Origin: an uncultured bacterium
GTDB lineage: Bacteria; Abyssobacteria; SURF-5
Length of the DNA stretch: 18,922 bases
Assembly: GCA_964510165.1 (NCBI GenBank)
Contig: CAZEBC010000065.1
Span: forward strand, 1 to 18,922
Reading direction: 5' to 3'
Shown here: piece after piece, positions 6,250 through 17,410 of the stretch
Layout: each line of letters opens with the position of its first letter
How positions within the stretch are numbered: position 1 is the stretch's first letter
Position numbers and translations under genes: made by a program
Notes under the pieces: generated by a model
What the model was told of the DNA's origin: nothing
Seen by the model: the letters and a program-made list of their open reading frames with translations, nothing else
Database searches by the model: none

Positions 6250-6306
6250 TTCAGTGAACGGTAAGGACTGTTGTCCCGCAGTTTTCTGGACGGCAAAAGG
6301 TGGGAT

Positions 6307-6525
6307 ATGACAAAGCTTCTGAAAAAGGCGTTTGACGAAGCCTCCAAGCTCCCTGAAGTCGAACAAAACGCTGTGGCAAAATGGCTGCTCGATGAACTGC
6401 ATTCTGAGAGGGAATGGACAAAGGCTTTCGCTGAATCGGAGGATATCCTGGAAAGGCTCGCAGATGAAGCCATAGGGCAAAAGGGTGAGGGCAAGACCGA
6501 AGCACTGGACCCCGGTCGCCTATGA
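6307..6525 (+). CDS. Putative type II antitoxin (72 aa, acidic, helical)
   Basis: MTKLLKKAFDEASKLPEVEQNAVAKWLLDEL; AAGGTGG RBS; stop overlaps the toxin start (ATGA at 6522-6525). Confidence 0.75.
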   Translation: MTKLLKKAFDEASKLPEVEQNAVAKWLLDELHSEREWTKAFAESEDILERLADEAIGQKGEGKTEALDPGRL

Positions 6526-6800
6526 AATCAAGCACAACGGAACGATTTTGGAAATGCTACGCTGTCCTCCCCACCGAAGTAAAAGCCCAAGCCAAGGAAG
6601 CATACGCTCTTTTCGAGAAGGACCCGTACCATCCCGGTTTACGCTTCAAGCGCGTCCATTCGACGCGAGCAATCTTTTCCGTTCGAGTGAGCCTGCACTA
6701 CCGTGCCCTGGGAATCGTCGAGGAAGACGAGATTACTTGGTTCTGGATTGGTTCACATGCCGACTATGACAACCTCGTTAGGCAGTTGAGAAACACATAG
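6522..6800 (+). CDS. RelE/ParE-superfamily toxin
   Basis: 92 aa; F-K-Y--LP, DPYHPGLRFKRV, SVRVSLHYRALG, WFWIGSHADYD match the RelE/ParE-like fold; translationally coupled to a small acidic upstream gene. Confidence 0.82.
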   Translation: MKSSTTERFWKCYAVLPTEVKAQAKEAYALFEKDPYHPGLRFKRVHSTRAIFSVRVSLHYRALGIVEEDEITWFWIGSHADYDNLVRQLRNT

Positions 6801-6849: not shown

Positions 6850-7905
6850 TCAGTCGGTCGGGGTAAGCAGAAGTTCGATGTGGTCCTTGAGGCCGGATGA
6901 AACGAGAATCTTGAAGTTCTCGGGCGAGTCGCTCTCCTGATAAATCAACATTCCTTCCACGCCGGGCAGTTGCTCGATGAGCTGCATCCCTTTCTCGCTG
7001 CCCAGGACGAAAACGGAGGTGGAGAGCGCATCGGCGGCCATGGCGGTGTCGGCGATGATTGTGGCGCTCAGCATTCCTTCAACCGGCATGCCCGTGCGCG
7101 GGTCCATGATGTGACAATACTTTCTGCCTTTTATCTCGAAGAAGCGCTCGTAGTTTCCCGATGTCGCGACGCCCATTTCCGAAACCGGCAGTCGGGCGAT
7201 GACTTCATCGGGGCGCAATGGATGCCGGATGCCCGCCTGCCACGGCGCGCCGTCGGCCCGGCTTCCGATTGCGTAGAAATTACCGCCCGCGTCAATGATC
7301 GCATTCTTGACGCCATGTTTCTTCAACGCTCCAGCGGCCCGATCCACAGCGTATCCCTTGGCGATGCCCCCGAAATCCAATGCCATCCCTTCCTGCGAGA
7401 ACCTGACGGTGTTCCCTTTTTCATCGGATAGCACCTCTTCGAGGCCCACAAGGAGCGTGGCCGTCCGGAGTTCTTCTGCCGAGGGGAGATGGCCGCTCTT
7501 CTTCGTAAATCCCCACAGCTTCATGAGCGGATACACGGTCGGGTCAAACGCTCCCCCACTCGCATCAAAATAAATGCGCGACGCCGCGAGCACGGCCCTG
7601 AAATCCTGCCCGACGCTTACGGGCCGCCCGAAGGCGTCGCGGTTGACCTCCGATATCTCGCTGTCCTCCTTGTAGGTGCTGAGCAGTCGGTCGATCCTGC
7701 GAATCTCGTCGAACGCCGCCTTCGCCGCGCGCGCATGGTCACCCGGCCCTTGCAGCTTGATGGTGAAGACCGTGCCCATTATGTTGGCCTGTTCCTCGTA
7801 GGAAGAGGCTCGGGTCGCGCAGGCGGGGAGTGCGAACGAAAGCGACAATAGGAACAGCAGGCTCGCCAAGCGGACAGGAGCGCTGGGAACGCGCGGCCGC
7901 TTCAT
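6850..7905 (-). CDS. apbE: FAD:protein FMN transferase (lipoprotein)
   Basis: MGT, FDPTV, DFGGIAKGYAVD, DAGGN, ATSGNYER, HIMDPRTG, ADALST motifs; signal peptide with lipobox LPA|C. Confidence 0.93.
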   Translation of the reverse strand: MKRPRVPSAPVRLASLLFLLSLSFALPACATRASSYEEQANIMGTVFTIKLQGPGDHARAAKAAFDEIRRIDRLLSTYKEDSEISEVNRDAFGRPVSVGQDFRAVLAASRIYFDASGGAFDPTVYPLMKLWGFTKKSGHLPSAEELRTATLLVGLEEVLSDEKGNTVRFSQEGMALDFGGIAKGYAVDRAAGALKKHGVKNAIIDAGGNFYAIGSRADGAPWQAGIRHPLRPDEVIARLPVSEMGVATSGNYERFFEIKGRKYCHIMDPRTGMPVEGMLSATIIADTAMAADALSTSVFVLGSEKGMQLIEQLPGVEGMLIYQESDSPENFKILVSSGLKDHIELLLTPTD

Positions 7906-8642
7906 CTTGCCTGTGTCCTCGTGACGTGAATGTTTCGGGCGATCTCGCGGTCGATCGCAAGCTGGGTCTCGCCCACGATTATCACGAGAGACGGCTGGCG
8001 CTGGTGCACCCGCACGACCGTGCCCGGCAGCATGCCGAATGTCGTCAGCTTGTCGAGCCGCGCGTGATTACTCGTTTCGACGTAGAGTATCCGGCCCGAT
8101 TCTCCGCTGCGAAGCTCATCCAGGGTGAGCACGGCGGGCGCTGCCCTGTGAGCGCGGTCCTTGCAGCACGGGCCTGGCGGTATCTCTCTGCCATGCGGGC
8201 AGGTGCGCGGATGTCCGAGTATCGTGCAGATGCTGTCCACAATCTCCGGATTGAGCACGTGTTCCATTGCGCACGCCTGGCGTTCCATGTCCTGCTCCTT
8301 CTGAATCAGAAGCACGTCGGTGAGCAGGCGCTCGGCGAGCCGGTGAGCGCGAATGAGTTTTTCGGCCTCTTTTCTGCCGGCCTCGGTGAAGGCGACTGTG
8401 CCGTCACTGACCGAGACCAGGCCGCTTTCGATCGTGGAGGCCAGCAACTTGTCCACGTCGAGGTCCTCAATCGGTCGCGCTTTGAGTTCATCCACCGTGA
8501 TTTCACCGCCGAACTCTTTCAGGAGATAGATGAGTTCCAGCAGTTCATCCATGTCGGTCTTGCGATAGTCCAGAGTGGGCGGCTTGAACTCCGCCAGTTC
8601 CCGTCCGCCGCGCCAGCGATTCCTGCGTCCGCTCCAGTTCAA
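7902..8642 (-). CDS. DtxR/MntR-family metal-binding protein with C-terminal FeoA (SH3-like) domain
   Basis: HRLAERLL, ACAMEH, CPHG..IP motifs, then FeoA-like LTTFGMLPGTVVRV...AIDREIARNIHV. Start uncertain: TTG at 8642 (AGGAG upstream, overlaps the upstream TGA) or ATG at 8552. Confidence 0.85.
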   Translation of the reverse strand: MNWSGRRNRWRGGRELAEFKPPTLDYRKTDMDELLELIYLLKEFGGEITVDELKARPIEDLDVDKLLASTIESGLVSVSDGTVAFTEAGRKEAEKLIRAHRLAERLLTDVLLIQKEQDMERQACAMEHVLNPEIVDSICTILGHPRTCPHGREIPPGPCCKDRAHRAAPAVLTLDELRSGESGRILYVETSNHARLDKLTTFGMLPGTVVRVHQRQPSLVIIVGETQLAIDREIARNIHVTRTQAR

Positions 8643-8848
8643 TTCTCTTCGCTCCTTTTCCTGCCGAATTGTTTGTTGAGCCATGTGACCATGCTCGACT
8701 CCCTCGGGAAGCCGAACCCACAATTTGGGCAACAGATGATCTCGCAGTTCTTGCGCAAATTGCACCCGCTACACGTGTGCTCGTCGGGGCTGAATTCCGC
8801 GCCGCACAGCGAGCATTTTACCTTATTCTGTCCTTTTGCCGCTTCCAT
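8639..8848 (-). CDS. Small cysteine-rich protein (69 aa, 8 Cys) in the feo operon
   Basis: MEAAK...CSLC...CSGCNLRKNC...CCPNCG; GGAG RBS before ATG 8848; sits 17 nt after the feoB stop. Confidence 0.75.
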   Translation of the reverse strand: MEAAKGQNKVKCSLCGAEFSPDEHTCSGCNLRKNCEIICCPNCGFGFPRESSMVTWLNKQFGRKRSEEN

Positions 8849-8865
8849 ATCGCGCACTCCGTCGG

Positions 8866-10845
8866 CTACCCGGCATAATTGAGGGCGCGCAGAATCCAAT
8901 TGACGATGCCGCCCGTCAGTATCGCGATCGGGAAAATGAGTGTCAGCATCACGAGCGCCGTCTTGATTCCGCGCTCCTTGACAATCACGAAGAAGTTAGC
9001 TATGCACGGGATGAACAGGGTTATGACAACCAGGCTCACGATCACCTGGACGGGGTTCAACATGCCTTCCTCGTACAGCTTGTAGAGCCCCGCCGCGCCG
9101 TAGTCGCGCCTCAGGAAGCCCATCACGAAGGACACCGTGGTCTCGGCGGGCAGCATGAGGAAGCGGACGACAACTGGCTCGGCGACCCGCACTATCGCGT
9201 CGAGCGCTCCGAGGCGGTCGGCCACAAACAGCACGGACGTTCCCAGCAGAAACAGCGGAACAGCCTCTTTGAGGAACCACTCAACCCGTGAGATGGTCTT
9301 GAGGACGACATTGGATATCTTCGGCAGCCGGAACGGCGGTATCTCGATCATGAAGTCCGACACCTCGCCCGGCACGATCTTGCCTGCCAGAAAGCCGACA
9401 ATCAGCAACTGCGAAACGATCACGGCAGCGAACACGACGAACGCGCTGAGCGATACGCCGCCGAGTATCCCAAGGATGACTCCCAACTGCGCCGAGCAGG
9501 GGATCGCCAGCGCGAGCAGAAACGTCGAGATGACCCGCTCCTTCTTGGAGTCGAGGATGCGGGTTGTCAGCGTCGCCATGGTGTCGCAGCCCAGCCCAAG
9601 CACCATCGGCAGCACGGCCTTGCCGTTCATCCCCATCACCTTGAAGACTTTGTTCGCCATGATGGTCAGGCGCGGCAGGTAGCCCGTGTCCTCCAGGATA
9701 CCAAAGGCGAGGAAAAAGAACCCGACGATCGGGAGCACGATGGCGATCGAATAAGTAAGTCCCATCGTGATCAGTCCGAACTCGCCGACAAGCATGTCCT
9801 GGAGGAGCGGCACGGGAATCTTGCCGACCAGCCAGATGGCGGCGGGATTGATGTACTCGCCGAAGACGACCGACTCGATGAAATCAACGCAAGTGCCTGC
9901 CCCAAACTGCCCCACAAAGACAAACATGAAATACAGCACCAGGCCCACAATCGGTAGACCCCAGACCGGGTGCTGCGCGAGGTCTCCGACCAGCCGCAGC
10001 CACGACCAGCGGTCCTTGCTCTCGGCCTTGAGCACCTCGCCGAGCAGCGAGTCAATCTGGTCGAGGCGCCTCTTGCCGATGACGTAGGGGAGGGGCTCGG
10101 CGAAATGCGATTGGGTTTCCCGCACGATTGCGTCGATTTCCTCCATCTGCTCTTCGGCGCAGTTGCCCTTGAGCCAATCCTCGAGGCTATGGTCGCCGGC
10201 CAGAAGCATCGCGGCGATCGCCTCACGAGAGACGGGCCCGGAAGGCAGGCGCGCGGCTATCTTCTCGATCGCCTCACGGATACGGGGGTGCTGTTCCACT
10301 CTGAAAACGCTCGGCTTGGCAGAGCCGAGCAAGGATATCAGCTTGTTAATGCCCCTTCGCTCCGTGGCGACCGTCTCGACAACTGGGACGCCAAGCCGTT
10401 CGGAAAGCTTCTTCGTGTCGATGCTTATGCCTGCGCTGCGGGCCTCGTCGACCATGTTGAGCGCAAGCACCATCGGCAGTTCCATCTCGGCCATTTGCGA
10501 GGTGAGTATGAGCGAACGCCTCAGATTCTTTGAGTCGGCCACCTGCACGACGGTTGTCGAGTTCTGCGAGAGCAGCATGTCGCGCGCCACCTTCTCGTCC
10601 TCGCTCCTCGGAATCAAGCTGTTGGCGCCGGGCGTGTCGATCACCCGATGCAACCCGCCGTCGAAGCTGGAACTGCCCTTGGCAATCTCGACCGTGGTGC
10701 CAGGATAGTTTGAGACGGTCACATACTTACCCGTCAGATGCGAGAAGATGACGCTCTTGCCGACGTTCGGATTGCCCACCAATGCTATGGTTGGCACGGA
10801 GGCGGTATCTTTCACTACAGCTTTTTCGTGGGACCCGTGATGCAT
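8866..10845 (-). CDS. feoB: Ferrous iron transporter B
   Basis: G1 GNPNVGKS, G2 NYPGTTVE, G3 DTPG, G4 NMVD; membrane domain with LEDTGYLPR, GLGC, IPCSAQ, EIPPFRLP, FIPCIA. Confidence 0.95.
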   Translation of the reverse strand: MHHGSHEKAVVKDTASVPTIALVGNPNVGKSVIFSHLTGKYVTVSNYPGTTVEIAKGSSSFDGGLHRVIDTPGANSLIPRSEDEKVARDMLLSQNSTTVVQVADSKNLRRSLILTSQMAEMELPMVLALNMVDEARSAGISIDTKKLSERLGVPVVETVATERRGINKLISLLGSAKPSVFRVEQHPRIREAIEKIAARLPSGPVSREAIAAMLLAGDHSLEDWLKGNCAEEQMEEIDAIVRETQSHFAEPLPYVIGKRRLDQIDSLLGEVLKAESKDRWSWLRLVGDLAQHPVWGLPIVGLVLYFMFVFVGQFGAGTCVDFIESVVFGEYINPAAIWLVGKIPVPLLQDMLVGEFGLITMGLTYSIAIVLPIVGFFFLAFGILEDTGYLPRLTIMANKVFKVMGMNGKAVLPMVLGLGCDTMATLTTRILDSKKERVISTFLLALAIPCSAQLGVILGILGGVSLSAFVVFAAVIVSQLLIVGFLAGKIVPGEVSDFMIEIPPFRLPKISNVVLKTISRVEWFLKEAVPLFLLGTSVLFVADRLGALDAIVRVAEPVVVRFLMLPAETTVSFVMGFLRRDYGAAGLYKLYEEGMLNPVQVIVSLVVITLFIPCIANFFVIVKERGIKTALVMLTLIFPIAILTGGIVNWILRALNYAG

Positions 10846-10881
10846 GGCCCTTCATAGTCCTTTCCGGTGTGCTGTTTGTTG

Positions 10882-10916
10882 TATTGGGGACACCATGCCG
10901 CACGGTGTCCCCAATA
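10882..10916. repeat. 13-bp inverted repeat in the feoB leader
   Basis: TATTGGGGACACC-atgccgcac-GGTGTCCCCAATA; no U-tract follows on the minus strand. Confidence 0.6.
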
Positions 10917-10926
10917 TAACTTGCTT

Positions 10927-10945
10927 ATTGCGACTCCATCTCAAT
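10927..10945. promoter_or_regulatory. Fur-box-like operator upstream of feoB
   Basis: ATTGCGA-CTCCA-TCTCAAT, 19-bp 7-5-7 imperfect palindrome matching the site at 11407. Confidence 0.7.
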
Positions 10946-10962
10946 ACAAATCCACAAAAAAA

Positions 10963-11388
10963 TCAGTGACAATTCTCACAACGACCGAAAATGCGGAGAC
11001 TGTGATGCTCCGCCTGAAAATTTAGACTGTCGCACACCTTCTGCTGCAACAACTCGATGAAGCTGTCATCGAATTCTATCGTCCGCCCGCATTCGACGCA
11101 GATAAGGTGATCGTGGTGCTTGTGGCCGACGACGTGCTCATAGACCTTCCTCGATTCTCCGAGCTCCATGGCGTGCACCAAGCCCGTCTTGACCATGAGG
11201 TCAAGTGTGCGGTAGACCGTTGCGCGCGATATCCGCTTTCCCTTGCGTTTCAGGATTTCGACCAGTTGGTCCGCGTCGAAATGGCTGTGGATTTCGAATA
11301 CGGCTTCGAGGATTTCCTTTCGCTGCGGGGTAAACTTGAGGTCATCCCTGGCGAGGAACTCGGAGAAGAGTCTGTATTCGTCCCGCAT
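10963..11388 (-). CDS. fur: Fur-family transcriptional repressor
   Basis: TPQRKEIL, HFDAD, ISRATVYRTL, HHDHLICVECG, C-terminal CENC; directly upstream of feoB. Confidence 0.92.
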   Translation of the reverse strand: MRDEYRLFSEFLARDDLKFTPQRKEILEAVFEIHSHFDADQLVEILKRKGKRISRATVYRTLDLMVKTGLVHAMELGESRKVYEHVVGHKHHDHLICVECGRTIEFDDSFIELLQQKVCDSLNFQAEHHSLRIFGRCENCH

Positions 11389-11406
11389 TGTGGCCTTTCG
11401 TCATTA

Positions 11407-11425
11407 ATTGAGACTCAATCGCAAT
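11407..11425. promoter_or_regulatory. Fur-box-like operator over the predicted fur transcription start
   Basis: ATTGAGA-CTCAA-TCGCAAT, same 7-5-7 pattern as 10927-10945, 3 nt downstream of the -10 box. Confidence 0.72.
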
Positions 11426-11428
11426 AAC

Positions 11429-11457
11429 AGTATAAACGCATCCGCCTCTCTTGTCAA
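11429..11457 (-). promoter_or_regulatory. sigma70 promoter of the fur-feo operon
   Basis: Minus strand TTGACA (11457-11452), 17 nt spacer, TATACT (11434-11429). Confidence 0.78.
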
Positions 11458-11613: not shown

Positions 11614-12447
11614 ATGGAAAACTATATCTGTAAGACGTGCGGAGTTCAGCAGGCGGCGAGCGAAAGGCCGCCTGAACATTGCATCATCTGCGAAGACGAG
11701 CGCCAATACATCGGCCCGAACGGCCAGGAGTGGACCACTCTGGCTGAAATGAAACAAGCGGGCTACCACAACCAGATGCGTCAACTGGAGCCCGGGCTGA
11801 CCGGAATCCAGACGCAGCCGGGCTTCGCCATAGCTCAGGTCGCCCTGCTGGTCCAGACTCCTGACGGCAATATTCTTTGGGACTGCCTCAGTTATATCGA
11901 CGACGAAACCGTCGAGAAAGTGAACTCGCTCGGCGGCATCCAGGCCATCGCGGCTTCTCACCCGCATTTCTACGACTCGATGGTCGAATGGAGTCATGCC
12001 TTCGGCCGGGCGCCGATATACCTTCCCGAGGCCGACAGGCAGTGGGTTGTTCGGCCCGATCCCGTCATAAGATACTGGGAAGGCGCGATTAAACCCCTGC
12101 CGACCGTTACCTTGATCCAATGCGGCGGCCACTTCGAGGGCAGCTCGGTCCTTCATTGGCCGAAAGGGGCGGGCGGCAAGGGAGTCCTTTTGGTCGGCGA
12201 TACGATTGGCGTTGCCATGGACCGGCGCCATGTGAGCTTCATGCGGAGTTATCCGAACCTGATACCGTTGCCGCCCTCCGCCATACGGGGCATTGCCGAC
12301 GCGGTTCGCCCGTACGCATTCGACCGGATATACAGCGCCTGGTGGGGAAAACTCATCGAATCCGGCGCGAAAGAAGCGGTCGAACGCTCTGCCGAGCGCT
12401 ACATACACTACATCACCGGCGAGGTCCCGCTCTCTGCAAGACGATGA
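11614..12447 (+). CDS. MBL-fold metallo-hydrolase with N-terminal CxxC...CxxC
   Basis: ICKTCG...CIICEDERQY, NILWDC, SHPHFY, GGHFEGS, GDT, SFMRSYPNLIPL motifs. Confidence 0.85.
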   Translation: MENYICKTCGVQQAASERPPEHCIICEDERQYIGPNGQEWTTLAEMKQAGYHNQMRQLEPGLTGIQTQPGFAIAQVALLVQTPDGNILWDCLSYIDDETVEKVNSLGGIQAIAASHPHFYDSMVEWSHAFGRAPIYLPEADRQWVVRPDPVIRYWEGAIKPLPTVTLIQCGGHFEGSSVLHWPKGAGGKGVLLVGDTIGVAMDRRHVSFMRSYPNLIPLPPSAIRGIADAVRPYAFDRIYSAWWGKLIESGAKEAVERSAERYIHYITGEVPLSARR

Positions 12448-12472
12448 CAGAAGGAGGCGGCGAGGTGAGGCC

Positions 12473-12868
12473 ATGAAGATACCGCCACAGGTGAAAGACC
12501 TTCTGACCGCCGCGCGGCTGGTTCAAGTGGCCACGGCGGACAAAGAGGGAACTCCCCACATGGCCGCCGCCAAGGGGGTTTACGTGCTTGATGATAAGCA
12601 CGTGGCCTTCGAGGAGTGGTTCTGCATGCAGACTTTGGAAAACGTGGACGCGAACCCCCGGATCGCGCTTTCAATTATCGATCCCGCCGGTCAGAAGGGA
12701 TACCAGCTTATTGGGGTCGTCGAGAAGGCAGTTCCCACGGAAATGCTTGACGGATACGCCCCGCAGGTCGAATCCAAGCTTGGCCGCATCCCCCAGGCCA
12801 AGCATCGTCTCAAGATCAAGGTTGAGAAAATCCTTGAGCTTTCCACCGGTCCACATTCAGACGAATAG
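12473..12868 (+). CDS. Pyridoxamine 5'-phosphate oxidase-like FMN-binding split-barrel protein
   Basis: VATADKEGTPH, TLENVDANPRIAL, GYQLIG, VEKILELS; GAGGTGAGG RBS before ATG 12473. Confidence 0.85.
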   Translation: MKIPPQVKDLLTAARLVQVATADKEGTPHMAAAKGVYVLDDKHVAFEEWFCMQTLENVDANPRIALSIIDPAGQKGYQLIGVVEKAVPTEMLDGYAPQVESKLGRIPQAKHRLKIKVEKILELSTGPHSDE

Positions 12869-12972: not shown

Positions 12973-15900
12973 TCACCTGGTCAGTTCAACTCTTATCCGG
13001 TTGAGCGGCGAGTTGGAGACCTCGACGCTCGCATTCACGCTGTCATCCTCTGAGATGAATCCCTCGATAGCGGGCGATGGCCCATTGACTGTGAACTGGC
13101 CGTCCGCAAAGGGAACGTCAAAAGTGTAAAGGTTGCTCTGCCCCGCCAGCGAAGTCAGTTCGGCGATGGTCGTCAATGTTCCGCTCTCGATGAGTTGGAA
13201 GACCTGACCCGCCGCCGGATAATATGAGGCTGCGGCCTCGCTCGCGACATATGAACTGCCGCTGGTCGCGTTGAAATCATGCCCGAACACCGCCTGCAGC
13301 CAGCCGGCGTCATCATCCTCGCCGCCAAAGCTCGTTCTATCTTTGCCAGTCCCGAGCAAAACCATGACTATGAACATGCTTCTGCCGGGGTTCGCGACCG
13401 TCGCGGAAAGATTGACCGCCGCGAAGAGCTGGGCGTCGGACGGAAGCGCGCCGTCTCCGACGGTGAAGACGCCGGTGAGCAGGTCGGAGTCAAAGAGGTC
13501 TTGCTCCAAGGCATTGTCCGCCGCCTCGAACGTCATCTGGAACAAGCCGTCCGTTGCGGCGGAGTACGTTCCGCGGCTGTCGTCTCCGGTCGAGAGCGTC
13601 GGCGTGACCGCGCCGCCGGTGTCCTCGTTCATGCTCTGGCTGAGCGCCGAGAGCGTGAACGTGGTGTCATCGGCGAACGTCACGATGCCTTGGAAGGTGG
13701 ACGCGGACTCGTTGCCCCCAAGGGGCGGGTAATCATGCACGAAGCCGAGCAGGCCCATTGTCTTGCCGGCCAGAGAGACCGGGTCAGCGCCGCTGCCTGC
13801 CTTGGTCAGGACATATATCGCGCTGGCTCGCTCGATCTGCTCGAGCGTGCCGGCAACGATGACGGTGTTGCCGTCGGGGCTGAGAGCGCCCATTCTTCCC
13901 TGGATGTTTCCCACAGGAGTGATTGTGACCACTCCGTTGTCGTTCATCACATACACCCCCGAGTCGCCGGGGTCGTCCACGATGGTTGTCGAGGGGACGC
14001 CGTCGCTGGTCACCTCGAACTTGTCGCCGCCCGCGCCGACGGTATAGGTTCCGTCGCCGGCAAAATTCACGCTGCCGCCGCCGATGAGGGAGGACTCCGA
14101 GCCAACAAGAGTCAGGTAGGTGTCATCGGCGGGGTCGAGGGCGTGGTTGAAGTCGTGCCTGAATACAACCATGTTATACGTTCCGCTCAGACTGGCCTCA
14201 GTGAAGCCGCTGGGGATGTTGCGGTCCTTGTATGTGAAACCGTTGTAGGGATTGCTCTCCTCGCTCACGTCGGTGTTTTCGACCACAACGTTGACAGTTC
14301 CGACGCCCGGCGGGGTGAGAGCGTATATTTCGGTTGCGCTCGCCGCGAGCGTGGCCAGTGCGTCGTCAAGCCCGAACCGCGCGACGACATTGCCCACATG
14401 GAACTGGATACCTCGGATATAGACCTCTGTCCCGCCGGCTTCCGGCCCTTCAGGCGGCCCGACGTATGTGATGAATGGCCTAGTCAGATATGTGAACGCG
14501 CTCGCGAGCGTGTCCCAATTTGTGTCCGGGTTGGTGACGCTCACGTCCACTATGCCCGTGCCGCTCGGAACGGTCACATCAATATGATTGCCGTCGACCA
14601 CGGTGGCGGCGCCGGGGTTGGCCGCGCCGAAATCGACCACTGCGCCGTCCTGGAATCCACAGCCGGTCACCGTCACATCGGTGCCGCCGATCGCCGGCCC
14701 CTGATTCGGTGTAACGCCCGCAATCGCAGGCTCAAAGGTGAAGTCTCCGGGAGAACAGGAAGCCCCGTTTCCGGGATTCGTCACCGTGACGGCGACCGTG
14801 CCGACGTCGTTCGCGCCGTTCGGTATATCCACATATAGGGTATTTGCGTCAGGGCGCTGAATGGTCGCGGCGTGGCCGGCCAAATCAACCTCGACATCGG
14901 TCGCGAAGCCGCAGCCGTCTATCTGGAACGGAGCGTCATCGCACGAGGCCGAGTCGGGCGTCATCGAGGCACACGAAGGGTCGAAACTGAACGTGAGGCT
15001 CGTGTCTGAATAGCCGGGCGCCTGAGGATCATCAACCGAGATCGTCTTGTCCAGCCCAAAGTCGGTCGCGCGACAGGGGATGCTGAACTGGGCTTCCGTG
15101 CCGGGCGTGGTGACCGTGACCGGCGTGAGCGCGCCGCCGATGGACATGCGAAGGTCCGTATCGAAGCCGCAGCCCGAGATCGTCACCGGCGGGTCTCCGA
15201 ACGCTCCATGCGAGACCGAAATGCCGGTGGTCACAGGGAGGAAGCTGAATGAACGGCCTGTGTCCGGATTGGCGGGCAGGTCGGGATCAACAATCGAAAC
15301 GGTCCGAAGCTGTCCGTAGCCGTCGCACGGGATCAGGAACTGTAACTGATTGCCGCTGACCACGGTTGGCGCGACGACGGCGCCGCCAATCGTCATCTGG
15401 ACATCTGTGTCGAAGCCGCAACCGGCGATTGCGACAGGACCGTCCCCGTTCTTGCCATAGGTAGGCGAGATGCCCATGGTTGCAGGCAGATAATCGAACT
15501 GTTGTGTAGTATCGGAATAACCGGGCAGGTCTGGGTCGGTAATCTCGACCGCCCTGTCCTGGCCGTAATCATTGACGCCGCACGGCACGTCGAAGCGTAT
15601 CGTGTTGGCATTGACTACGCGAAGGTTGTCGCTCGCGCCCAGGGTGGTTTGGCCCGAGGCGTTCGCAACCTTCACGACACTGTCTCGGTCGAAACCGTAG
15701 CCTGAGATCGTTATCCTGTCAGGGCTGATTCCGCTCTTGCCCTGAGGCGTGATGCTCGCGGTAACCGGCTGATAGCTGAATGTGTCGGTCGCATACGCGT
15801 CCGGATAGTCGGCGGAAGGATTGATTGCGGCGAGCACCCTGTCTTGTCCCGCGTCATATGGGCCGTTGGGAACGATAAGATCAATGCGGTCCAAACCGCT

Positions 15901-17226
15901 CCGGAAGTATTCGCCGGGAGCGTCAAGATCGCCGGGGCTGGCGACCGGAACCAGCGTGGTCACCCCCACGGGCGGGGAACCCCATTGCGCTATCCGGACC
16001 TGGGCGTCATCCGCGAAACCACAGCCCTGTATGACGACCGCATCGCCCGCCTTGGCAGCGGCTGGAGTCACACTGAAGATTTCAGGGGAATACGAGAATG
16101 CCGCGTCGTAGCCGAGCATCGAAGCGGGAGATACGTTGCCGTCGGCGTTAGTGACTATGACCGGCACGTCGTACGGCTCCGTTAGCGCGGGTGTCGCTCC
16201 CGGGAACGCGGGAGTCGTCACCACGAGCATTCCATCATCGGACTGCGCGAAATTGACCGCGGCAGTGTTGCCGTTTATGGTGACCTCGAGATTCGATCCC
16301 TCGTGAGACGCCAGGAATCCGCCACCCCATATCACGATCTGCTCGGCGCCCAGGCATGAGCCGGTAGGGTTGCCCGAAGCGTTCGTCAGGCCCGTTATCA
16401 CCGGGAGGTATGTGTACACGTCGTCGAGGCCCTGGGCGGTGGGAATTGTATCATCGGGATACGTGTCGTTCTCGACGCGAAGGTCGAGCGCGTTGCCCGC
16501 GCCCGGACTCAGGCGGCCCTGAATCCTGACGGTCGCATCGGGAAGCTGAGTGGCCGTGAGCTCGGTTATCGGGAATCTTGTTCCAGTTCCGTCCTCCAGG
16601 AAGAAGCGGTCGGTCGTGGCGAGATTAAAGCCCGTTATGGTCACCAATTCACCTGGGACATTCCCGGTGGGGTCGCTCGGAGGAGCGTCGGCCGCGTAGC
16701 CACGGTTGTCGGCGCCCTCATCCGCGAATTGCAGGACGGCCGGGTTGTTCTGAGTGGAGAAGGTGAACTCGACACGGGGATAATCGGTGAACGTTCCGTC
16801 CGCCGTGGCGTAAATATAAACCACATACTGGCCTGGGTGGAGAGACTTGAAGAGGATGGCGCCCTGTTCGCCGCTCATCTCCGCCTGCAATTCGGAGACG
16901 GCGAGGTCCGCGTAACTTGCGCCGGGCAAGAGGAACCCGCACCCTGGATGACTATCGGGATTGGCAAGCTCGAACATATATGCGATGAGTGTCTGGCCGT
17001 CACTGGCGACGCCGGCCGCGCTCATCGAGTTGAGCGAGCACACAAGCAACGGCTGATCGGCAAACGGCGTGCCTTCGTTGACGGTCACGGTGACATCCGC
17101 GGTCGGACCCGGCGGCGGGACGACCGCTCCGCCGCCGCTTCCACCGCTGCTGCATGCCGGAAACACGGCAGTGAGAACGGCGAGGAACAAAATCGACACC
17201 GATTTCATTCTGAAGTTGTCGTTCAT
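12973..17226 (-). CDS. Large surface lipoprotein with ~9 tandem IPT/TIG domains (1417 aa)
   Basis: GGAGGAG RBS before ATG 17226; signal peptide with lipobox FPA|C then SSGGSGGG; repeated P..(I/V)(S/T)P..G...V.I.GCGF...V.V.NP...F(S/T)Y units; very acidic, Gly/Thr/Pro-rich. Confidence 0.88.
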   Translation of the reverse strand: MNDNFRMKSVSILFLAVLTAVFPACSSGGSGGGAVVPPPGPTADVTVTVNEGTPFADQPLLVCSLNSMSAAGVASDGQTLIAYMFELANPDSHPGCGFLLPGASYADLAVSELQAEMSGEQGAILFKSLHPGQYVVYIYATADGTFTDYPRVEFTFSTQNNPAVLQFADEGADNRGYAADAPPSDPTGNVPGELVTITGFNLATTDRFFLEDGTGTRFPITELTATQLPDATVRIQGRLSPGAGNALDLRVENDTYPDDTIPTAQGLDDVYTYLPVITGLTNASGNPTGSCLGAEQIVIWGGGFLASHEGSNLEVTINGNTAAVNFAQSDDGMLVVTTPAFPGATPALTEPYDVPVIVTNADGNVSPASMLGYDAAFSYSPEIFSVTPAAAKAGDAVVIQGCGFADDAQVRIAQWGSPPVGVTTLVPVASPGDLDAPGEYFRSGLDRIDLIVPNGPYDAGQDRVLAAINPSADYPDAYATDTFSYQPVTASITPQGKSGISPDRITISGYGFDRDSVVKVANASGQTTLGASDNLRVVNANTIRFDVPCGVNDYGQDRAVEITDPDLPGYSDTTQQFDYLPATMGISPTYGKNGDGPVAIAGCGFDTDVQMTIGGAVVAPTVVSGNQLQFLIPCDGYGQLRTVSIVDPDLPANPDTGRSFSFLPVTTGISVSHGAFGDPPVTISGCGFDTDLRMSIGGALTPVTVTTPGTEAQFSIPCRATDFGLDKTISVDDPQAPGYSDTSLTFSFDPSCASMTPDSASCDDAPFQIDGCGFATDVEVDLAGHAATIQRPDANTLYVDIPNGANDVGTVAVTVTNPGNGASCSPGDFTFEPAIAGVTPNQGPAIGGTDVTVTGCGFQDGAVVDFGAANPGAATVVDGNHIDVTVPSGTGIVDVSVTNPDTNWDTLASAFTYLTRPFITYVGPPEGPEAGGTEVYIRGIQFHVGNVVARFGLDDALATLAASATEIYALTPPGVGTVNVVVENTDVSEESNPYNGFTYKDRNIPSGFTEASLSGTYNMVVFRHDFNHALDPADDTYLTLVGSESSLIGGGSVNFAGDGTYTVGAGGDKFEVTSDGVPSTTIVDDPGDSGVYVMNDNGVVTITPVGNIQGRMGALSPDGNTVIVAGTLEQIERASAIYVLTKAGSGADPVSLAGKTMGLLGFVHDYPPLGGNESASTFQGIVTFADDTTFTLSALSQSMNEDTGGAVTPTLSTGDDSRGTYSAATDGLFQMTFEAADNALEQDLFDSDLLTGVFTVGDGALPSDAQLFAAVNLSATVANPGRSMFIVMVLLGTGKDRTSFGGEDDDAGWLQAVFGHDFNATSGSSYVASEAAASYYPAAGQVFQLIESGTLTTIAELTSLAGQSNLYTFDVPFADGQFTVNGPSPAIEGFISEDDSVNASVEVSNSPLNRIRVELTR

Positions 17227-17296
17227 GGTACGGCTCTCCTCCCAAAGAAGCCTGTTCAGGATCTTGCGTACGGCGTATTTTGCCTTCGCCCAGCGG

Positions 17297-17312
17297 AGCA
17301 AGTTCCGTACCA
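17297..17312 (-). promoter_or_regulatory. sigma54 (-24/-12) promoter
   Basis: Minus strand TGGTACG-GAAC-TTGCT fits TGGYAYR-N4-TTGCW with exact GG-N10-GC spacing, about 70 nt upstream of ATG 17226. Confidence 0.7.
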
Positions 17313-17410
17313 TGATTGGCGAAAGTTGTAACTAACATTGCCGACAGGAGTTGTGCCGACGAAAGAAGATGTGCGCTTCAGCCATTTGTTCGTGATTTGG
17401 TGGTTGCCGC

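Follow-up and report, generated by a model that had tools for sequence, protein, structure and literature searches.

A Fur/Feo iron-uptake operon ending in apbE in Candidatus Abyssubacteria: a widespread Feo module with a probable housekeeping flavin transferase at its end

Results

Organisation of the operon

The stretch of DNA analysed here, hereafter the window, makes up contig C65 (CAZEBC010000065.1; 18,922 nucleotides, nt) in its entirety and comes from one metagenome-assembled genome (MAG) of an uncultured bacterium, the assembly comprising 4.17 Mb in 325 contigs with a completeness of 97% and a G+C content of 58%. It carries a five-gene operon in which the genes of a Feo iron-uptake system are followed by apbE, which encodes a flavin transferase. 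The present study concerns the make-up of this operon and the place of apbE in it.

Gene identities were taken from Pfam and NCBIfam, the Pfam scan covering 17 open reading frames (ORFs) of the window. Profile searches were made in 251 genomes, 240 from outside the phylum (Candidatus Abyssubacteria) and 11 from within it; the latter, which are all those of the phylum in the reference collection, consist of ten genomes of the window's own family and one of a sister family.

All five genes lie on the minus strand. The first is fur (10963–11388), which encodes a protein of 141 amino acids (aa) matching PF01475 with 115.8 bits, and it is separated by a 117-nt spacer from feoB (8866–10845; 659 aa; TIGR00437, 408 bits, cut-off 315.65). 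The stop codon of feoB is followed after 17 nt by the ATG of a small gene (8639–8848) for a 69-aa protein with eight Cys, here called the 8-Cys protein, which belongs to no Pfam or NCBIfam family. This gene overlaps by a TTGA (8642–8639) with a gene that starts with TTG and encodes a 246-aa DtxR/FeoA protein (7902–8642; PF02742, 91 bits; PF04023, 54.8 bits), and the latter shares a 4-nt ATGA overlap (7905–7902) with apbE (6850–7905; 351 aa), whose product matches PF02424 with 309.3 bits over profile positions 1–265 of 266. An earlier reading of the window from its letters, the sequence-only reading, had described these five genes as co-oriented and tightly packed, and this description held in every detail, including the 17-nt gap and the two overlaps.

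The FeoB protein contains the domains PF02421 (FeoB_N), PF07670 (Gate), PF07664 (FeoB_C) and PF17910, and a single strong FeoB_N match marks it as the only FeoB of the genome. The best NCBIfam matches of the Fur protein were to Fur models, at 94 bits (cut-off 200) and 84 bits (cut-off 146) and hence below threshold, and models of PerR and Zur matched it as well; the gene context favours Fur over Zur or PerR. There are three Fur-family loci in the genome, including the operon fur, and since two more thus exist, the Fur of the operon may be dedicated to it. In the DtxR/FeoA protein the FeoA domain (PF04023), which is the only one of the genome, occupies residues 173–241. Its TTG start is supported by an Arg/Trp-rich N-terminal peptide common to the predicted proteins of the relatives. 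No Pfam match was obtained for an N-terminal helix-turn-helix (HTH). In the AlphaFold2 (AF2) model the mean pLDDT (predicted local distance difference test) was 47; residues 30–100 scored 73–85, with the remainder below 50, and displayed the order helix-strand-helix-helix-hairpin, a winged-helix-like topology. Compared with the repressors DtxR, IdeR and MntR, the protein thus has the PF02742 dimerisation domain and an SH3/FeoA domain, whereas an HTH would be represented only by this winged-helix-like region of the model.

When set beside known Feo operons under Fur control (feoAB, feoABC), the operon has in common with them a FeoB above the equivalog cut-off, a FeoA domain, a small Cys-rich gene that follows feoB, a gene of the Fur family and a promoter with palindromic operators. 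It differs in the fusion of FeoA with a DtxR-type metal-binding domain, in a Cys-rich protein that matches neither FeoC nor PF12669, and in having fur at the head of the unit and apbE at its end.

Promoter and operators

A sigma-70-type promoter (TTGACA-17-TATACT; 11429–11457, minus strand) that matches at 11 of 12 positions precedes fur. Its -35 hexamer TTGACA is kept in all eight family loci, and a promoter with 11 of 12 matches was called likewise in three of the relatives' loci (L034, L039 and L040). Directly 3' of the -10 hexamer lies operator 1 (11407–11427), a 21-nt imperfect palindrome present in 8/8 family loci, and operator 2 (10925–10945) lies in the fur–feoB spacer and is present in five of the eight. 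The two operators form an inverted 21-nt match with 81% complementarity. The strong promoter and the two matching operators noted before from the letters are hence real features, and the promoter and operator 1 are conserved in the family.

A degenerate core of the operators occurs five times in the 4.17-Mb genome, against about 2.5 occurrences expected, a total close to chance, and two of the five are operators 1 and 2. The other three are at about chance level (C13:23701, C39:14808 and one within a gene on C44); those on C39 and C13 are alike, and the C39 site lies 44 nt 5' of a putatively UbiD-like ORF. In related modules from other phyla, 3 of 21 regions 5' of fur or feoB contained operator-like sites (at least 10/12 core positions), compared with 4 of 400 random 300-nt segments, and one of these sites, 5' of a fur gene, has the same central bases. 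The family-conserved promoter and operator together with the similar sites in other phyla lend support to the iron-type (Fur-like) regulation proposed earlier, and we infer that the regulator binding the operators is Fur or a DtxR-like protein.

The fur–feoB spacer also holds a perfect-looking REP-like palindrome (10878–10920) of 43 nt, with 21-nt arms and a 1-nt loop. It was considered as an operator or attenuator and rejected: similar copies are found on more than 20 other contigs, and it is missing from the relatives' fur–feoB spacers, so that it is a dispersed repeat with no part in regulation.

Conservation within the family

The five genes occur in the same order in 7/7 complete loci from relatives of the same family, with amino acid identities to the window of 69–76% for Fur, 74–78% for FeoB, 44–57% for the 8-Cys protein, 69–73% for DtxR/FeoA and 61–69% for ApbE. 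Two more relatives are truncated by contig ends. In one (G008, locus L042) the contig ends within dtxR/feoA, with apbE and the dtxR/feoA gene present, and in the other (G002) no ApbE was detected at the locus because the contig stops 66 nt past dtxR/feoA. A search with the DtxR/FeoA alignment retrieved loci of the same family only (six loci).

Conservation of gene order extends beyond the operon. A gene for a Zn-dependent dehydrogenase lies 3' of apbE in seven of eight relatives' loci, and in six of these seven a gene for a DeoC-type aldolase comes next; the window's genome carries both of these genes on contig C16. Since an unrelated dehydrogenase gene is kept nearly as well as apbE, adjacency within the family is weak evidence of function.

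The 8-Cys protein belongs to an unnamed family linked to feoB

All eight Cys of the small protein are invariant across nine family sequences, and seven are invariant among 40 diverse members of a family whose proteins are about 60–90 aa long. It is a soluble protein in which a C-terminal helix follows the pattern C-x2-C ... C-x2-C ... C-x3-C-C-x2-C, and its AF2 model had a mean pLDDT of 65.5. Its profile, run against 1.84 billion cluster representatives, matched 953 of them at E<=1e-3, of which 148 had E<=1e-10. This family is without a Pfam or NCBIfam model, and the 8-Cys protein and 39 relatives gave no match to FeoC or PF12669 at E<=0.01.

The profile matched 34 of the 251 genomes: all ten of the family, 24 of the 240 from other phyla and not the one from the sister family. 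At 20 loci from other phyla, for which about 5 kb were inspected on each side, feoB was directly upstream of the 8-Cys gene in 19, a DtxR/FeoA gene (14 loci) or FeoA gene (three loci) was downstream in 17, and fur was upstream in 5. The set fur/feoB/8-Cys/DtxR-FeoA is a widespread module that occurs in many phyla without apbE.

The 8-Cys protein probably binds zinc or an iron-sulfur cluster, and it is a candidate for a FeoC-like third Feo component. It resembles FeoC and the PF12669 peptides in being a small Cys-rich product encoded directly after feoB, but differs in having no Pfam match to either, in being soluble, in its Cys pattern and in its C-terminal helix; FeoC itself is a winged-helix protein with a single Cys cluster (PMC8749426). 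In the main text of this survey of Feo systems (Gomez-Garzon 2022), FeoC and PF12669 are the only Cys-rich Feo accessories named, and a term search of that text found ApbE, DtxR, flavin and zinc ribbon unmentioned. A literature search combining FeoB with DtxR or zinc ribbon gave no account of the feoB/8-Cys/DtxR-FeoA module.

ApbE and its junction with the operon

A single match in the genome identifies the product of apbE as its only ApbE. The protein aligned over its full length with the solved FmnB structure 7esa (E=3e-56), and its S-T-Y segment (flavin contact) and H-I-M-D-P segment line up with their counterparts in 5mgy, 6nxi and 7esa; a role of the conserved His in the H-x-x-D-P motif is described in PMC12052999. 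The segment L-S-T-Y-K aligns with S-T-Y-R of the Vibrio and Pseudomonas transferases. This Tyr marks the class of ApbE/Ftp proteins that are transferases binding flavin adenine dinucleotide (FAD), and its replacement in E. coli Ftp creates pyrophosphatase activity (PMC4767422). The N-terminal hydrophobic stretch, a putative signal peptide, ends in L-P-A-C with a lipobox-like Cys, and a Cys follows this stretch in 8/9 family sequences. A Pro at position -2 is unusual under the lipobox rule.

The ATGA overlap with apbE is found in the window only. In the relatives, the spacers between dtxR/feoA and apbE measure about 33–332 nt, when likely starts are judged by the signal peptide. One of them (L034) holds a GC-rich palindrome, taken to be a repeat insertion, and in another (L040) an insert of 332 nt includes a 70-aa ORF and has inverted repeats at its ends and a terminator-like hairpin at its start. 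The inverted repeats around this insert (L040, 6033–6360) look like the 43-nt REP-like palindrome of the window.

Because of the ATGA overlap, and because no other sigma-70-like site was detected within 1 kb upstream of the window's apbE, this gene is likely to be co-transcribed with the feo operon in a Fur-dependent manner in the window's genome. Co-transcription across the family is not guaranteed, since the looser junction of the relatives, with its wide spacers and inserts, makes separate transcription of apbE possible there. The suspicion that apbE might have a promoter of its own is accordingly opposed by the junction in the window and left standing for the relatives, whose spacers leave room for one.

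apbE outside the family and the origin of the arrangement

Conservation of apbE beside feoB/DtxR-FeoA loci, which a link between flavinylation and iron uptake would lead one to look for, was confined to a single family. No apbE was present within about 5 kb of any of the 20 feoB/8-Cys/DtxR-FeoA loci from other phyla. Seven of these 20 genomes have no ApbE match at all, and in the remaining ones ApbE is encoded on another contig, among the matches listed; for one genome (G073) the place of ApbE is not among the matches listed, and its 8-Cys gene has no apbE within about 5 kb. In other phyla the module is followed by a heterogeneous set of genes, including those for RsgA, histidine kinases, TrkH, a ZIP transporter and AnmK, and none of 18 ORFs from 16 loci encodes an ApbE. 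When the matches listed for the two proteins (150 of 203 and 150 of 309) were compared by eye, no ApbE-FeoB pair within 25 kb was seen outside the phylum, the closest pair among them being 26 kb apart (G175). Conversely, 21 ApbE loci from outside the family, viewed 1.5 kb to each side, contained no feoB, 8-Cys or DtxR/FeoA gene, and two of the 21 adjoin rnf genes.

The ApbE of the sister family has 47% identity, and its gene is neighboured by methyltransferase, amine-oxidase and DUF362 genes. Searches of that genome yielded neither a FeoB (at E<=1e-30) nor an 8-Cys or DtxR/FeoA gene. At the same locus (L041, G010:C22), the strand that carries apbE also has, about 4 kb away and probably by coincidence, a gene for an ApbC/Mrp-type iron-sulfur carrier NTPase (1308–2438). 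A tree of 28 ApbEs, from which one row had been removed for an internal stop and whose deeper branches lack resolution, placed the ApbEs of the family in one clade (support 96/94), with the ApbE of the sister family as its sister (92/75). Because this sister protein is itself encoded in a Feo-less context, the tree indicates that ApbE is the phylum's own vertically inherited gene, which came to adjoin a Feo module.

Possible substrates of ApbE

The absence of a flavinylation substrate from the window, already noted from the letters, was confirmed by the Pfam scan of its 17 ORFs, which also found no membrane electron-transfer component (PepSY-, MsrQ- or NapH-like, DsbD, or NQR/RNF-like). The genome contains one FMN_bind protein, RnfG, which is encoded on contig C21 in an rnfCDGEAB operon beside RnfD, and a scan for a dedicated FMN_bind substrate thus led only to RnfG and RnfD, that is, to clients of the housekeeping type. 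No apbE lies alongside this rnf operon (L003: 8021–8635, 6618–8024). RnfG has the motif D-A-I-T-A-A-T, with Ala instead of the usual Gly, and RnfD carries T-D-M-V-T-S-P-M-T. In a model protein, a Gly-to-Ala exchange in the flavinylation motif reduced flavinylation to about 50% (PMC12052999). Each genome of the family has one ApbE and one FMN_bind match, the FMN_bind locus having been inspected in the window's genome. RnfG and RnfD, which represent the only recognised substrate families present, would most likely be the clients of ApbE.

Searches for other substrates were made as well. DUF2271 was not found, and a search for DUF3570 was uninformative since it gave no match in any control genome either. 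The strict motif D-x-x-[ST]-G-A-[ST] had 14 matches in all six frames, none of them in a known substrate family. FeoB itself was rejected as a non-canonical substrate, there being no [ST][GAS]A[ST] motif common to at least four of the eight family FeoBs. In another sampled genome (G016), contig C194 (L015, 256–2499) carries in tandem an FMN_bind gene, a 219-aa ORF without Pfam match and an apbE, with the feoB/8-Cys/DtxR-FeoA module on a different contig; neither the FMN_bind protein nor the 219-aa ORF of this row has a homologue in the window's genome.

Genes flanking the operon

The flanks differ among members of the family, and neither the toxin-antitoxin-like pair downstream of the operon nor the metallo-beta-lactamase (MBL)-fold gene upstream of it was seen in the relatives' loci. 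The downstream pair (6271–6800, plus strand) is convergent to apbE and lies just 3' of it; an 84-aa ORF of no family overlaps a 92-aa gene with a ParE-like toxin domain (PF24732), and its absence from the relatives marks the downstream flank of the window as rearranged. Divergent from the fur promoter is the upstream gene (11614–12447, plus strand), whose 277-aa product has a metallo-beta-lactamase match that is weak and below the cut-off, and an N-terminal C-x2-C ... C-x2-C pattern. It is followed by a PNPOx-like gene (about 12472–12868). Further along, a 1446-aa ORF (12973–17313, minus strand) contains five IPT/TIG repeats and no further Pfam match.

Discussion

The arrangement is best explained, in our view, by a housekeeping ApbE that serves Rnf, that by descent lies at the end of a widespread Feo module and that in this genome has been drawn into the transcription unit; we regard this account as reasonably probable. 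It would operate as follows. When iron is plentiful, an iron-bound repressor, namely Fur and possibly the DtxR-like protein with it, would occupy operators 1 and 2 and keep the unit off. When iron is scarce the unit would be transcribed, and FeoB would import Fe(II) with the help of the FeoA domain and probably of the 8-Cys protein as a FeoC-like sensor. ApbE would be exported and would attach flavin mononucleotide (FMN) to RnfG and RnfD. The position of apbE at the operon end may go back to one juxtaposition in the ancestor of the family, and the ATGA overlap would then have welded the gene to the operon in the window's genome, a wiring that may have no function.

The proposed enzyme agrees with the ApbE/Ftp proteins that serve Rnf or Nqr in E. 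coli, Vibrio cholerae and Pseudomonas stutzeri in having a full-length domain, the Tyr of the FAD class and, probably, export, and in being present here as a single copy whose only recognised clients are RnfG and RnfD. It differs from them in lying at the end of an iron-uptake operon instead of beside nqr or rnf or alone, and in that the RnfG motif reads T-A-A-T, with Ala for Gly.

Several observations weigh against this account. The dtxR/feoA–apbE pair is kept in 9/9 assessable family loci despite their differing flanks, and apbE has stayed with feo in the window's genome, where its usual dehydrogenase and aldolase neighbours have moved to C16. It is also odd for a housekeeping enzyme that the window's sole flavin transferase should sit under an iron-repressible promoter. 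Genetic work in Salmonella points to a connection between ApbE and iron-sulfur metabolism that is still unexplained (PMC12052999). Finally, the substrate search was limited to known substrate families and to a MAG that is 97% complete.

That flavinylation is genuinely tied to iron status by regulation, taken over all variants of the idea, nevertheless seems to us rather unlikely. In the variant that survives best, apbE stays in the Fur/Feo unit because flavinylated Rnf has to be made in an amount that tracks iron status or iron-sulfur homeostasis; for example, with iron in short supply Rnf might hold ferredoxin or flavodoxin in the reduced state for the assembly of iron-sulfur clusters. The constancy of the pairing and the Salmonella connection would both fit such a coupling, as would the ATGA overlap in the window and the fact that Rnf is the only recognised client. 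On the other hand, the Feo module does without apbE in other phyla (0/20 loci), the spacers of the relatives permit separate transcription, and an unrelated downstream dehydrogenase gene is conserved nearly equally (7/8); on balance we consider the coupling doubtful. A broader proposition, in which the sole flavin transferase is under Fur/Feo control because flavinylation is part of the iron-starvation response, be its target Rnf or an unrecognised client, and in which the 8-Cys protein is a widespread third Feo component, appears to us more doubtful still; if true, it would open a natural genomic route to the connection of ApbE with iron-sulfur metabolism that was first seen in Salmonella.

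The sequence-only reading had suggested that flavinylation may be switched on together with Feo so as to equip an Fe(III) reductase outside the cytoplasm. This proposal was left unsupported, as apbE is absent from the modules elsewhere and only clients of the Rnf type were found. It could be rescued if ApbE, co-induced with Feo, flavinylated an unrecognised, non-canonical extracytoplasmic ferric reductase that feeds FeoB, or if the arrangement were the relic of an iron module composed of a flavoprotein, a membrane protein and ApbE. Precedents exist in the flavinylation clusters tied to VIT1, P19/FTR1 and PepSY-like proteins (Meheust 2021, PMC8238504), and the tandem row of FMN_bind gene, 219-aa ORF and apbE in G016 is of a similar kind. 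Like these iron-assimilation clusters, the operon has apbE clustered with an iron transporter and is probably iron-regulated, but it differs from them in having no substrate gene (FMN_bind or DUF2271; the DUF3570 search was uninformative), in having no membrane electron-transfer gene in the cluster and in that its transporter is FeoB and not VIT1 or P19/FTR1. In the main text of that article Feo occurs only in a reference title, and its supplementary cluster table may list Feo genes; in a literature search combining ApbE with FeoB or flavinylation, FeoB was absent among the matches listed. The genome moreover has no second FMN_bind protein and lacks homologues of the G016 proteins, the family FeoBs share no conserved candidate motif, the strict-motif matches fall outside the known substrate families, and the tree does not resolve how the family's ApbE is related to ApbEs of the module type. 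We therefore hold a ferric reductase of this kind to be improbable.

The least tenable possibility is that ApbE works in the periplasm as an FAD pyrophosphatase, as Ftp of Treponema does, with a shuttle of free FMN reducing Fe(III) for FeoB; such a class of ApbE/Ftp does exist (PMC4767422), but the window's ApbE has, in its L-S-T-Y-K segment, the Tyr of the FAD-binding transferase class, on which ground this reading was rejected as highly improbable.

If the housekeeping account is true, gene order at the level of a family can mimic functional linkage, and the apbE part of the operon would hold little new biology. Even so, a sole ApbE behind an iron-repressible promoter offers an inexpensive system in which to probe how ApbE is connected with iron-sulfur metabolism. 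The 8-Cys proteins constitute a large unnamed family that is present in about 10% of the sampled genomes, encoded between feoB and a DtxR/FeoA gene, and they bear on the question of which accessory proteins Feo systems employ and what role these play in the gating of FeoB.

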